From contig JAZQCS010000071.1 of assembly GCA_045546415.1 (NCBI GenBank), forward strand, positions 1-55,853: a stretch of 55,853 bases of DNA. The letters run 5' to 3'. The position numbers and the translations under genes are program-made. Under the pieces are notes generated by a model. The model ran no database searches and was not told the origin of the DNA. It saw only the letters and a list, made by a program, of their open reading frames with translations. Positions 48,033-51,220 of the stretch are shown here, one piece after another. The stretch's first letter is position 1. Every line of letters begins with the position of its first letter. The stretch comes from Clostridia bacterium. GTDB taxonomy: Bacteria > Bacillota > Clostridia > RUG12999.

Positions 48033-48896
48033 ATGAAAGCTTTTACCACCTATTTTGCCACCCGTGAAACAGACCCTGAAGCCGGTGGCTTATGTATGTT
48101 TTTCAGGGGATGTGCTTTTACCCATCCCCACAACCATGATTATTATGAAATATTCCTTACCCTTACCGGTAAGCTTACCCATTTTGTAAATGGGGTAAAA
48201 CAGGTTCTGCCCGAAGGAAGCCTTGTTTTTGTCCGCCCAAGTGATGCTCATTCCTTCAGTTCTGACACGCCTTCCGAGGTTTCCTACATTAACCTCACCT
48301 TCACAAAGGAAACCGCTGAAGAGCTTTTTGAATATCTTTCCGAGGGGTTCCCCTCCGCCCACCTGTTAAAAGCACAGATGCCTCCTTCCGTTCTGCTTAC
48401 AACCTCACAGAAAAACAAGCTTTACTCGGAAATTGACGAGCTCAACCTTGTTAACTGGCAGGACAAAAAACAACTCAAGCTCCGGCTTCGTGTGTTACTG
48501 ATTAATATTTTTTCCAGGTATTTTTCAAATGTTCCTGCCGCACAAAACGATATACCCGTGTGGCTTATACGCCTCAGCGATAAAATGGCTCAGCCCGAAA
48601 ACTTCACGGCAGGTGCAGAGCGTATGATTGAGTTGTGTCATAAAAGTCGTGAGCACCTGACACGAAGCCTGAAAAAACATTACGGTCTTTCCCTTACGGG
48701 ATACATAAATGACCTCAGGCTCAACTACGCCTCAAACCTTCTTATTAACAGCAACACGCCCATACTCGATATATGCTTCAACTGCGGTTTTCAGAATGTA
48801 AGTCTGTTTTACAGAGTTTTCAAAAAAAAGTTCGGGCTCACTCCCTTAAGCTTCAGAAAAAAATATACTACAACTGAAAATCTTCTGTCATCCTGA
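48033..48896 (+). CDS. AraC-family regulator (ChbR/CelD-like), divergent from GH38
   Basis: HNHDYYEIFL cupin, FVRPSDAH, KSREHLTR, ILDICFNCGFQNVSLFYRVFKKKFGLTP. Confidence 0.92.
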   Translation: MKAFTTYFATRETDPEAGGLCMFFRGCAFTHPHNHDYYEIFLTLTGKLTHFVNGVKQVLPEGSLVFVRPSDAHSFSSDTPSEVSYINLTFTKETAEELFEYLSEGFPSAHLLKAQMPPSVLLTTSQKNKLYSEIDELNLVNWQDKKQLKLRLRVLLINIFSRYFSNVPAAQNDIPVWLIRLSDKMAQPENFTAGAERMIELCHKSREHLTRSLKKHYGLSLTGYINDLRLNYASNLLINSNTPILDICFNCGFQNVSLFYRVFKKKFGLTPLSFRKKYTTTENLLSS

Positions 48897-48902
48897 AAAA
48901 GT

Positions 48903-48935
48903 GAAATCCGTCCCGGAAGGGACGGATTTCGTTTT
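48903..48935 (+). terminator. Intrinsic terminator after the AraC gene
   Basis: GAAATCCGTCCC-GGAA-GGGACGGATTTC followed by GTTTT. Confidence 0.75.
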
Positions 48936-48960
48936 GTGTGTGGCAACCTTTGAAACAAGC

Positions 48961-49126
48961 AAAAAAGGTGCATCAACTTAAAGTCAATGCACCCGAAAAA
49001 TGCATTGCTCCTTTTGTTACCACACAAATTCATCACTATGCCACCAAGGGATGCGAGAATAGAGAATGCATTTTTACCAAAGATAAAAAGGCACCCTTAG
49101 CGGATAACATATTGAATTTGTGTGGT
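48961..49126 (-). ncRNA. Candidate ~166-nt structured small RNA, family not recognised
   Basis: Own promoter (49133-49161), 14-bp perfect 5' closing stem, inner stem with G:U pairs only on the minus strand, terminal hairpin followed by U6; no credible ORF. Confidence 0.68.
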
Positions 49127-49132
49127 GATATA

Positions 49133-49161
49133 AGTATACCACATATCTTTATAAATGTCAA
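49133..49161 (-). promoter_or_regulatory. Sigma-A promoter driving the candidate sRNA
   Basis: Minus strand TTGACA-17-TATACT with extended TG, located downstream of the terminator at 49176-49208. Confidence 0.8.
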
Positions 49162-49175
49162 ATTTTTTTGCATAC

Positions 49176-49208
49176 AAAAAAGCGGTTCCTGTCCGGGAAC
49201 CGCTTTTT
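49176..49208 (-). terminator. Intrinsic terminator of the 669-aa gene
   Basis: AAAAAGCGGTTCC-loop-GGAACCGCTTTTT. Confidence 0.82.
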
Positions 49209-49210
49209 GC

Positions 49211-51220
49211 TTATATATTAAGACAATCTTCTGTACCGTCAAGCTCAAGAAGAGCTTCACCGTTTCTTTTAAGGTGTTTCAGGTTGCCTGCAACAAATTT
49301 TTCAATGTTGCCTCTGCCGTCTGTTTTAAGGGCAAGGGTTCCCCGGAATTCCGCTTCAAACTTAAAGCCGTCAAGCTCAAATTCGTATGTACAGAAACCG
49401 TCATTCATAACAGAATCGTAATCGGAAATTACAACTGCACCGTCCTCAGTTACACAACCGCATTTAATTTTGTTCTGTGTAAGGTTCAGCGCCGAAACAA
49501 TGTCAGCATCCTCGTTAAGAAAATACTCGTTTCCGAAACCAAAGCCGGCAGGCTCTCCGCCAAAGCCACGGGTCAGCTTGCCTATAACCTTCATTTCCAC
49601 GCCCTGCTTTGCGGCACCGTTAAGAAAATCAATCACCTCAGGCTTTGAATATTCAGGATACAGATAAAGCAACTTTTTGAACCTATGACCGCAGAAATCA
49701 ATTTCACCGTCCACCACTTTAATTCTGCCGTCCTCAATTGCATTGGAAGGTGCAAGTGCGTTGAAATAGCCGGTATTCCAAAGCTTTTCCGTTCTGCCCA
49801 TAATATCAATTTTACCGTTAATGTCTGTGTTGTTTCTGGCAGAATAGTCCGGGTACCAGTTACAAAGCTCCGGAAAACCGAACACGGTAAGAAGCTCCAT
49901 TTTTGGCTGTTTTGTATCAAAAGCATTCAGCAGATTAATTTTGCTTTCAATTTTTCCGATTTTAGCAAGGAAATCCTCTGAACCGGTATCCACGCCCCAA
50001 AATCCGTCGTTCATTGCGTGGTAATGAATTCGTGTGTTGTAACGGGCATCGCGGACAGCCTTTTCAAAGAAAGCTTCTTCCTTTTGATGATAGAACATAT
50101 CGTAAACAATGCTTTCCTCCCAGCAGCAGGACATACCTGCTCTTACGGGGTAGCCTATATCCTCATCGGTCTGTGCATATTTTCTGGGTACATCCCACCA
50201 GTTACAGCCGGTTGCCCAAAGCTCGTCGTTCTGCAGGCGGTTATGGAAGGTGTTATGCACGCCTATGAATATGTTTTCTCCAAAAACCTTTTTTGCACAA
50301 TCTGCCACAAAATTCTCAACTCTCAGAGTAGATGGACGCAGAACATCCCAGTAATTGTTAATTGCCTTAATTCGTATTTCCTCATTGCCTTCCGGACAGA
50401 AGCGCATTTCAAACATTGCTTTTACAAGACTTTCACCCTTTGTTTCCTCATAAACCCGGGCAAAATTCTGACCGTAAAACCTTTCACGCCACAACATTTC
50501 CTTAGCCAGAGGATTTTCCATAAACAAATGCTTGAACTCGTCAAGTCCGAAACCGTCAAAGGGAATATCTCCATAAGCCTCCATAAGGGCTTTGTAGTTT
50601 TCCTGATGTCCGTTGCCGAAAACATCAGGATATCCGCAATAATGTGCTGTAATTACATAAAGGGTATAACCCTCAAGGTCGCTTCGGTTCAGCTTAAGCT
50701 GAATTTCAAATGAATCTTCCGGATTTTCCGTTGCCACAACCTCATTTGTCAAATCAACAAGGCTGCCCTCTTCATATAAGCCTTCCCCGGTCTTTTTAAA
50801 CGCTGCCGCATAAAGAAGCTCACTTTTAAGCGCCGGTGCCGCCTCAAGATTCCTCAGGTTTTTTCCTCTTGCATTTATAACAGCCTCTCTCCCGTCGAGC
50901 AACTGTTCATACTCGGTAACAACTGCTTCTGCCTCCTGCCAGGGAGTATCCGACGGAGCAGACGACATAAATCCTCTCGGCCACACCTGAAGACCTATTT
51001 TAAGACCTTTTTTGTGGGCATATTCCACCATTTCCGCAAAAATGGGGCTGAACTTTTCAGTATCCCAGAAATTAAGCGAGCCTCTCTGTGTGAGAAAAAT
51101 CAGGTCAAAATCCGACTTATCTGCAAGAGTGTCAATATCCTTAAGGTAGTGCTTATCCGTAATAGTTTTTTCGTCCCAGAACCAATAATGAATTTTAGGG
51201 TGTCTTGAAATCATACTCAT
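49211..51220 (-). CDS. Hypothetical 669-aa protein, possibly a glycoside hydrolase-like TIM barrel
   Basis: Long ORF with AGAAGGAG RBS; IHYWFW, FDGFGLDEF motifs and CAZyme neighbourhood; family uncertain. Confidence 0.6.
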   Translation of the reverse strand: MSMISRHPKIHYWFWDEKTITDKHYLKDIDTLADKSDFDLIFLTQRGSLNFWDTEKFSPIFAEMVEYAHKKGLKIGLQVWPRGFMSSAPSDTPWQEAEAVVTEYEQLLDGREAVINARGKNLRNLEAAPALKSELLYAAAFKKTGEGLYEEGSLVDLTNEVVATENPEDSFEIQLKLNRSDLEGYTLYVITAHYCGYPDVFGNGHQENYKALMEAYGDIPFDGFGLDEFKHLFMENPLAKEMLWRERFYGQNFARVYEETKGESLVKAMFEMRFCPEGNEEIRIKAINNYWDVLRPSTLRVENFVADCAKKVFGENIFIGVHNTFHNRLQNDELWATGCNWWDVPRKYAQTDEDIGYPVRAGMSCCWEESIVYDMFYHQKEEAFFEKAVRDARYNTRIHYHAMNDGFWGVDTGSEDFLAKIGKIESKINLLNAFDTKQPKMELLTVFGFPELCNWYPDYSARNNTDINGKIDIMGRTEKLWNTGYFNALAPSNAIEDGRIKVVDGEIDFCGHRFKKLLYLYPEYSKPEVIDFLNGAAKQGVEMKVIGKLTRGFGGEPAGFGFGNEYFLNEDADIVSALNLTQNKIKCGCVTEDGAVVISDYDSVMNDGFCTYEFELDGFKFEAEFRGTLALKTDGRGNIEKFVAGNLKHLKRNGEALLELDGTEDCLNI

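Follow-up and report, generated by a model that had tools for sequence, protein, structure and literature searches.

The minus strand of a 55,853-nucleotide (nt) stretch of DNA from a Clostridia bacterium (positions 1 to 55,853 of contig JAZQCS010000071.1, assembly GCA_045546415.1; this whole stretch is referred to here as the window) carries, at 49161-48895, an RNA element that by its sequence is a member of a widespread, strongly covarying, and apparently undescribed RNA family without an Rfam entry. We propose that this element is probably a self-contained RNA gene belonging to an unnamed family of promoter-proximal transcription attenuators, a mechanism suggested by the mutually exclusive helices of the family and their energies. 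An initial annotation, made from the letters of the DNA alone, had described a stand-alone noncoding RNA gene at this position. Our analysis supports that description in part, since the element has its own promoter, is structured, and lacks an open reading frame (ORF), but the family to which it belongs usually has the layout of a cis-acting 5' leader attenuator. Among the classes of RNA that had been offered for it, "orphan switch" comes closest.

A covarying RNA family in Clostridia

We examined the minus strand of window positions 48700-49400, where the features listed in Table 1 are found. The promoter, previously noted as TTGACA-17-TATACT with an extended TG, is present on this strand with 11 of 12 consensus matches, and it was the top promoter-like site between 48000 and 50000 in a pattern scan. 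Its -10 hexamer lies 6 nt ahead of nucleotide 1 of P1, the 14-bp stem that had been predicted to start at a +1 near 49126 and that we located there. The minimum-free-energy (MFE) fold of 49126-48955 on the minus strand has an energy of -64.8 kcal/mol (z = -7.6), with 0 of 200 shuffles as good, while the opposite strand folds far more poorly (z = -3.9), a difference that points to selection at the RNA level. As had been noted earlier, the inner stem contains G:U pairs that work on one strand only.

When the element was compared by BLAST with its own genome, it found only itself, with no second copy at E below 0.28, indicating that copies are diverged rather than recent. In 61 related genomes, stretches 70 to 77% identical to it were present in a dozen, several of which belong to other families of the class. 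The homologues have a common plan that consists of a promoter, a P1 conserved in sequence, a variable inner stem, a conserved loop (..GGUAAAAAUGCAUnCUCU..), a conserved stretch following P1 (..ARCAAnnGGAGnnAUGCAUUUUU..), and a terminator, after which most of them carry a Shine-Dalgarno (SD) sequence and a start codon. A degenerate pattern made from two conserved blocks identified at least 120 stretches among species-representative genomes; by contig title, nearly all of these come from Oscillospiraceae, Acutalibacteraceae, Ruminococcaceae, or unclassified Clostridia of the animal or human gut or the rumen. MAFFT alignments (A1 and A2) failed to align the inner helix P2 structurally, so we seeded a covariance model, R1, with three members of equal length (A3) and had the remaining sequences aligned by Infernal. 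R1 matched window positions 48961-49126 on the minus strand over all 158 of its 158 positions with 86.1 bits (E = 1.8e-17; 88.3 bits in the genome search). A first set of 94 sources yielded 97 matches, and a further 99 sources yielded another 102; all four of the pattern matches that looked like chance (L066, L102, L123, and L131) were rejected. By contig title, the carriers include Agathobaculum desmolans ATCC 43058 (L209) and Ruminococcus sp. JE7B6 (L093).

Covariation was counted on a model-guided alignment (A4) of the 97 matches, 92 of which are distinct. In A4, 94.8% of the cells in the stored structure are paired, and 40 of 48 pairs are changed on both sides. None of 500 column shuffles reached any of five measures, and when partners were slid by 1 to 3 columns, only 35 to 54% of cells were paired (maximum, 53.7%). 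P1 is paired in 98.1% of cells, and of the 12 pairs that the model assigns to it, 9 show changes in both partners; in P2, all 17 modelled pairs are changed on both sides; and the family terminator is 99.4% paired, with both-side changes in 9 of 9 pairs. Mismatches in P1 are U-G and never A-C (at position 7, C-G occurs 62 times, U-G 28 times, and other combinations 0 times), and these one-sided departures point to selection on RNA rather than on DNA. On the model-guided alignment, P1, P2, and the terminator are thus supported by covariation, within a family of about 200 elements.

The promoter also recurs across the family. Upstream sequence of 45 nt or more is available for 118 elements. Of these, 115 have a -10 hexamer that agrees with the consensus at 4 or more of its 6 positions, 107 have the extended TG, and in 110 the -10 ends exactly 6 nt before nucleotide 1 of P1; a -35 is present as well in 83 elements, with at least 9 of 12 matches overall. 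This fixed geometry argues that the promoter belongs to the conserved cassette and that P1 starts at the predicted +1.

The initial annotation had called the gene unannotated, and no Rfam 15 family matches the window at or above its gathering score; the same search of 13 homologous loci returned tRNAs only. Relaxing the cutoff to E up to 10 for the window region, and to E up to 0.1 for ten further loci, brought up no match spanning the element. It had also been stated that the element shows no signature of signal recognition particle RNA, transfer-messenger RNA, or RNase P, with which our results agree, and an atypical 6S RNA can now be added to this list: the 6S RNA model RF00013 has no match in 48850-49260 at E up to 10, and the genome's 6S RNA lies on another contig (C88:26555-26761, 87.3 bits). 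In the portion of the literature that full-text searching reaches, we found no description of the family. A term look-up in Narunsky et al. 2024 (PMC11109978) did not find it in the text so covered, and it was likewise not found in the accessible parts of Fremin and Bhatt 2021 (PMC8040213) and of a 2026 preprint (10.64898/2026.10.21.760802), in which it may sit among thousands of unnamed supplementary clusters.

Six contigs of the window's genome (84.6% complete) carry R1 matches, 7 in total at E up to 1, of which 4 also pass a cutoff of 1e-5. Matches are found in 7 of 14 genomes of the window's order, with up to 12 per genome. An even sample of the class has them in 34 of 150 genomes, representing 27 of 106 genera, and a single genome can hold as many as 13. 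When the phylum was sampled, the only genome with matches besides that of the window belonged to its class, and 0 of 146 genomes from other classes had any. Among collections of mobile DNA, those of phages gave 2 records, each an unannotated contig from a faecal virome; plasmids gave 0 records and IMG/VR 1 stretch. In the samples searched, the family is restricted to Clostridia, class being read from the record titles of the matching contigs. Two good R1 matches carry titles outside the usual Oscillospirales-type labels, namely, L048 (titled Bifidobacteriaceae, 53.5 bits) and L200 (titled Lachnospiraceae, 87.9 bits); these could reflect mis-binning or a wider host range. We also observed that tandem pairs of leaders on the same strand, 36 to 130 nt apart, are common, an arrangement that recalls tandem riboswitches. 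In the class list, where a spacing of 36 to 95 nt is common, eight pairs were recognized by eye; examples of such pairs are G113 C8:61300-61666, G082 C5:90004-90379, G034 C39:30165-30534, and L103:1156-1596.

Competing helices and a proposed attenuation mechanism

P2 is topped by P3, a 10-bp A/U-rich hairpin that is 95% paired in the family. The 3' arm of P3 and the CUCU that follows it make up site 1, and a second segment, site 2, starts 7 nt past P1. Site 1 and site 2 are complementary over 15 pairs (93.4% and 97.1% paired), including one covarying pair that is G-C in 66 rows, A-U in 10, G-U in 7, and other in 5. Site 2 has a second complementary partner in the terminator, at its 5' arm and loop, and this antiterminator comprises 11 pairs that are 89.3% paired, 5 of them changed on both sides; it accounts for the strong conservation of the terminator, including its UUCG-like loop. 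The conserved unpaired positions are A14, G49, G50, U69, A107, and C109-A111. In the window element, both of these complementarities of site 2 are present; the duplex with site 1 has an energy of -15.9 kcal/mol, while the antiterminator half is weak (-5.9 kcal/mol, compared to a family mean of -12.4 kcal/mol). The "pseudoknot or alternative fold" between the loop and the 3' side of the stem, as it was first described, therefore exists as a complementarity and is supported by covariation in the family. By contrast, the SD-like stretch that this fold was thought to cover is no SD sequence; its GGAG belongs to the swing strand, which has the loop and the terminator 5' arm as alternative partners.

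We calculated nearest-neighbour energies for 87 elements, leaving out three further rows in which site 1 was unaligned. The mean energy is -7.6 kcal/mol for P3, -12.4 kcal/mol for the antiterminator, -14.7 kcal/mol for the terminator, and -15.9 kcal/mol for the site 1:site 2 duplex, for which a control that paired site 1 with shuffled site 2 gave -4.6 +/- 2.2 kcal/mol. The combination of site 1:site 2 and terminator (mean, -30.5 kcal/mol) is more stable than that of P3 and antiterminator (-20.0 kcal/mol) in 87 of 87 elements, and in these calculations, termination appears to be the thermodynamic ground state.

In the mechanism that we propose, transcription would start at the first base of P1. 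The RNA, as its sequence and covariation show, folds into P1, a long variable P2, and the small A/U-rich P3. Two partners would then compete for site 2 (GGAG..AUGCAUUUUU), one being site 1 and the other the terminator 5' arm and loop. In the stop state, site 2 would take site 1, allowing the terminator to form and giving a short RNA of about 155 to 166 nt, so that the site 1:site 2 pairing would act as an anti-antiterminator. In the read-through state, site 1 would be held in P3, site 2 and the terminator 5' arm would form the antiterminator, and the polymerase would continue. Site 1 might be kept in P3 by a putative ligand, by a protein, or by fast elongation during the short time before the terminator is made. 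For most members of the family, read-through would lead to expression of a downstream gene. For the window copy and about ten relatives, it would only add a 30-nt extension and end at a second terminator, and since no gene follows the window copy, its product would be an RNA with a short and a long isoform.

We found no sign of a leader peptide in 173 elements, as the frame that opens with A/GUG has a median length of 21 codons, compared to 19 and 20 in the other frames, and its lengths are scattered; this agrees with the earlier statement that no credible coding sequence is present. There is also no T-box model among 24 weak matches in the window, and the antiterminator is an uninterrupted hairpin, the individual T-box motifs being judged by eye.

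TABLE 1 Features of the RNA element and their positions in the window
Feature	Position	Strand	Description
Sigma-70-type promoter	49133..49161	-	-35 TTGACA 49161-49156, 17-nt spacer, extended TG 49141-49140, -10 TATACT 49138-49133
P1 5' strand	49113..49126	-	ACCACACAAAUUCA; begins at predicted +1 (49126)
P1 3' strand	49019..49032	-	UGAAUUUGUGUGGU; 14 bp with P1 5' strand
Inner stem		-	CCGCUAAGGG paired with CCCUUGGUGG
P2 and enclosed switch core	49041..49103	-	P2 is 49103-49094 with 49050-49041
Site 0 / P3 5' arm	49093-49082	-	Part of switch core
P3 3' arm	49078-49067	-	Part of switch core
Site 1 (loop)	49061..49075	-	AAAAAUGCAUUCUCU; partner is site 0 (giving P3) or site 2
J3/2	49060-49051	-	Part of switch core
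Linker	49018-49012	-	AACAAAA, between P1 3' strand and site 2
Site 2 (swing strand)	49011-48996	-	GGAGCAAUGCAUUUUU; complementary to site 1
Antiterminator hairpin	48985..49007	-	CAAUGCA 49007-49001 with UGCAUUG 48991-48985; mutually exclusive with terminator 1
Terminator 1	48961..48994	-	13-bp stem 48994-48966, U6 run to 48961; predicted RNA of ~166 nt
3' extension (gene-less subtype)	48931..48960	-	30 nt, holds the P1-5'-like motif GUUGCCACACAC
Terminator 2	48895..48930	-	12-bp GC-rich hairpin 48930-48903 and U-rich tail; predicted read-through RNA of ~230 nt

Gene-linked leaders, gene-less copies, and alternative readings

An SD sequence and an ORF of at least 40 codons are found within 70 nt past the terminator in 135 of 198 distinct elements. 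When the first 101 proteins encoded downstream were grouped by similarity, 27 of them, for the most part large and secreted, fell into the largest cluster (of four that were scanned with Pfam, one contains BspA LRR_5, one contains RHS and dockerin domains, and two gave no match); 10 proteins fall into a 77-amino-acid (aa) family, and the rest are mostly singletons. By a crude rule, 52 of the 101 have a signal-peptide-like N terminus, and 33 are shorter than 100 aa. In a Pfam search of 30 representatives, we identified BspA-type leucine-rich repeats (LRR), RHS plus dockerin, zinc ribbons, a SecDF head, EcsC, TerB, CAP, two extracytoplasmic function (ECF) sigma factors, an OPT transporter, WG repeats, helix-turn-helix (HTH) proteins, and HicA, while 12 of the 30 had no match. 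Lipoproteins are also named among the surface genes that the leaders would control.

The 77-aa family (L010:1226-1456 on the minus strand and its relatives; alignment A6) is the commonest single downstream gene. It has 294 homologues, and among the 120 listed, every name shown was "hypothetical protein," most being unnamed; searches of Pfam, PHROGs, and NCBIfam gave no match. The AlphaFold2 model of the protein is a three-helix bundle (predicted local distance difference test score, 74) with no fold match in the Protein Data Bank at E up to 0.001. We considered this protein as a universal partner of the RNA and rejected it, as 17 of 151 genomes encode it and it is missing from 22 of the 34 genomes in which the RNA was found. 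In loci L011 and L036, where a leader stands before the 77-aa gene, positions 1-151 have matches to Gut-1 on both strands, about 95 nt ahead of that leader, that are below the gathering score of 50 (40.8 and 27.9 bits). In a separate case, the window's genome has two copies of a 51-aa gene (MPDYETMY...), as seen when C62:27717-27787 (L152) is compared with C76:330-497 (L148). One copy stands behind a complete leader, and the leader of the other is reduced to its P1-3'/site 2/terminator portion. Site 1 has been deleted here by nature, and by our model such a leader would read through constitutively.

The window element has a different layout. No ORF follows terminator 1, and the usual downstream gene with an SD sequence within about 70 nt is absent. 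Instead, there is a 30-nt extension containing GUUGCCACACAC, which resembles the P1 5' strand, followed by a terminator shared with a convergent AraC-family gene. The third copy of the stem motif, reported at 48937-48947 as lying just outside the unit, is real and is part of this extension. The unit had been proposed to end near 48961, and a terminator is indeed located there; however, because the 48937-48947 motif belongs to a conserved extension that ends in a second terminator, the RNA unit probably reaches about 48895. The hairpin of this second terminator (48903-48930) is flanked by U/A-rich runs on both sides, as would suit a bidirectional terminator serving the AraC-family gene on the plus strand and the RNA gene on the minus strand. 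The other neighbours are a gene for a 669-aa protein upstream on the same strand (49214-51220) and nearby genes for GH38, GHL6, and DUF4838 proteins. Despite this glycoside-hydrolase cluster, the 669-aa protein matches no Pfam family at E up to 1e-5.

The same gene-less layout is seen at L016, L040, L053, L058, L075, L100, L104, L108, and L119 and in a further copy (C34) in the window's genome. By a strict automatic rule, 9 of 198 elements are gene-less and 10 more have a second terminator only, and the layout is conserved in about eleven species. Gene-less loci share no neighbours beyond pairs of loci, and we found no synteny of the window locus in four congeners. Since the layout recurs without shared neighbours or synteny, it seems that the unit has been kept as an RNA gene.

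The extension is complementary to the P1 3' strand, the linker, and the start of site 2 of its own element. For 11 elements, these cognate duplexes have a mean energy of -21.0 kcal/mol, compared to -9.7 +/- 3.1 kcal/mol for shuffled sequences, and 0 of 550 shuffles reached the mean. The window extension pairs with its own target at -25.8 kcal/mol (z = -6.8) and more weakly with sister leaders (-13.8 to -20.3 kcal/mol), while the extension of the C34 copy pairs with the targets of other copies at -17.6 to -27.3 kcal/mol (z of -4.1 to -7.9). A genome-wide search for complements of the window extension with up to 3 mismatches gave 56, compared to 65 for a reversed control, and thus no excess. A read-through RNA could refold, with the extension displacing P1 and freeing its 5' strand, and the MFE fold of the read-through RNA shows part of this refolding. 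Regulation of, or competition with, sister leaders is tentatively the most likely role for the RNA of gene-less copies.

Several points weigh against the attenuator reading. A4 was fitted to the model and is therefore biased toward its structure, with the slid controls and the one-sided mismatches less affected. The energy sums ignore the cost of the pseudoknot topology. With its 7-nt linker, the site 1:site 2 helix would have to form a pseudoknot along some 30 bp of P1-P2 rod, and by our own geometric estimate this requires either that the strands joining them be extended or that the rod bend, possibly at the conserved internal loop that separates P1 from P2. Cognate pairing of the extension is only slightly better than non-cognate pairing (-21.0 compared to -18.6 kcal/mol; permutation P = 0.02). 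The weak antiterminator of the window copy suggests that it may terminate almost always, in which case it may mostly yield the 166-nt RNA and might not switch at all. Finally, the downstream genes have no common pathway, whereas a metabolite riboswitch would usually have one, and they point to no particular signal.

This last point bears on whether the family is a classical small-molecule riboswitch, in which a metabolite or second messenger bound at P2, P3, and J3/2 would choose between P3 and site 1:site 2. We take this possibility seriously but think it unlikely. The layout is like that of kinetically controlled ON riboswitches, with a stable terminator-side fold that invades a weaker sensor fold, and the conserved unpaired positions given above could be read as a binding site. 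The multiple copies ahead of surface proteins also recall cyclic di-GMP (c-di-GMP) riboswitches, which in Clostridia are found in multiple copies before surface-protein genes. However, most of the conserved "loop" bases are already accounted for by the competing helices, and the genes downstream range from BspA-type LRR and RHS plus dockerin proteins through zinc ribbons, ECF, HTH, HicA, TerB, and OPT proteins to many small proteins. In addition, c-di-GMP-I riboswitches are already present in four of five multi-copy genomes checked; GGDEF genes are found in all five, and they provide no specific support for c-di-GMP as the signal. We note that two related genomes with 11 to 13 copies of the new leader each contain three c-di-GMP-I riboswitches in tandem within about 450 nt (G137 C3:198768-199223 and G082 C29:21489-21944).

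A second alternative is action in trans, either by short terminated RNAs, made from gene-linked as well as gene-less copies, that titrate a protein or by the extension of the long isoform, which would pair with the P1-3'/linker/site 2 region of sister leaders and adjust all of them together. For a helix, P1 and its linker are conserved in sequence to an unusual degree, a genome may hold as many as 13 closely similar copies, the C34 extension pairs well with the targets of other copies, and non-cognate duplexes of extension and target are strong on average. We nevertheless hold this alternative to be rather improbable, as the covariation between site 1 and site 2 is found within single elements, which argues for cis action; moreover, the window extension favours its own target over those of sister leaders, and its complements are not in excess in the genome.

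More doubtful still is decay, in which the window element would be the relic of a leader that has lost the gene behind it and is now transcribed without purpose. In favour of this reading are the missing ORF, an antiterminator far below the family mean, a P1 that begins with A where 98% of elements have G, and a locus that is not syntenic in four congeners. On the other hand, the element retains a near-consensus promoter and a full-length match to R1, its extension is still strongly complementary to its target, and the gene-less layout with extension and second terminator recurs at non-syntenic loci in about ten other species, all of which speaks against decay.

We also weighed an invertible DNA switch, in which the P1 arms would serve as recombination sites and inversion would swap site 1 for its complement. 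Inverted repeats of 12 to 14 bp around about 85 bp do lie between the promoter and surface-protein genes, and a flipped segment would abolish site 1:site 2 pairing. Yet 0 of 123 pattern matches are inverted and 115 have the native signature (classified by their flanks, in assembled consensus genomes only), the one-sided U-G departures point to selection on RNA, and an inversion model gives the variable, covarying P2 nothing to do, leaving this explanation very improbable. A miniature inverted-repeat transposable element (MITE) or other repeat, a small protein gene, or an atypical 6S RNA can be dismissed almost entirely, for while the element is multi-copy, folds like a rod, and has an A/GUG after GGAG, it has no second BLAST copy in its genome, its diverged relatives keep a consistent orientation on the strand of their downstream genes, it hardly occurs in collections of phages, plasmids, and viruses, no reading frame is conserved, and the canonical 6S RNA of this genome is elsewhere.

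Significance and relation to known systems

If the family functions as a transcription attenuator in the way that we propose, it would count among the commoner regulatory RNAs in Clostridia of the gut and rumen that still lack an assignment and would control cell-surface genes (BspA-type LRR proteins and lipoproteins) and ECF sigma factors in organisms in which genetics is difficult. With a fixed predicted start, strong helix covariation, and an explicit four-part relay, it could serve as a test bed for co-transcriptional switching, and discovery of its effector could reveal a signal not yet tied to RNA sensing. For genome annotation, model R1 would label hundreds of intergenic regions that are now blank. 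A bolder scenario, which we offer as speculation and think improbable as a whole, is that a portable cassette of promoter, RNA switch, and terminator places up to a dozen unrelated genes per genome, many of them for surface or secreted proteins, under one global signal, with the gene-less copies as an RNA-only arm whose read-through isoform exposes or sequesters the shared P1/linker/site 2 sequence and cross-talks with all sister leaders. If this were true, the family would constitute an RNA-based regulon with its own RNA regulator.

Other small structured RNAs without ORFs, such as Clostridiales-1, Gut-1, and 6S RNA, occur in the same habitats and hosts, but none of them matches the element. 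The layout has closer parallels among known regulatory systems. The pbuE (ydhL) adenine riboswitch is a kinetically controlled transcriptional ON riboswitch. Like riboswitches of this type, the new family has a promoter-proximal sensor followed by an intrinsic terminator and a stronger terminator-side fold that invades a weaker sensor helix, and the outcome would likewise be decided during transcription. Unlike them, it precedes an incoherent set of genes, has no Rfam match, and appears to contain an extra relay, in which the choice between P3 and site 1:site 2 precedes that between antiterminator and terminator.

In trp-type attenuators, four segments form the pairings 1:2, 2:3, and 3:4. The new family resembles these in that consecutive segments overlap in complementarity and one pairing would dictate whether the terminator forms. 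It differs in having no leader peptide, the GGAG being only 2 to 3 nt from the A/GUG, and in placing the first partner inside a domain closed by P1 and P2, so that its pairing makes a pseudoknot. A further parallel is the countertranscript-driven attenuation of pT181- and pIP501-type plasmids. In both cases, RNA-RNA pairing with the leader picks a pre-emptor or a terminator; in the plasmids, however, the partner is an antisense RNA from the opposite strand, whereas site 1 lies in the same transcript as its target and the elements are chromosomal, with 0 plasmid records.

For the gene-less subtype, the nearest relatives in design are the riboswitch-controlled small RNAs EutX and Rli55, of Enterococcus and Listeria, and SreA and SreB. 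Like these, a gene-less element has a putative conditional terminator, which would yield a short or a longer RNA, and a second terminator, with no ORF in between. What differs is that the stretch that read-through would add complements the P1-3'/linker/site 2 region of the element itself and is apparently no protein decoy. The gene-less subtype would represent a natural switch whose sole output is RNA.

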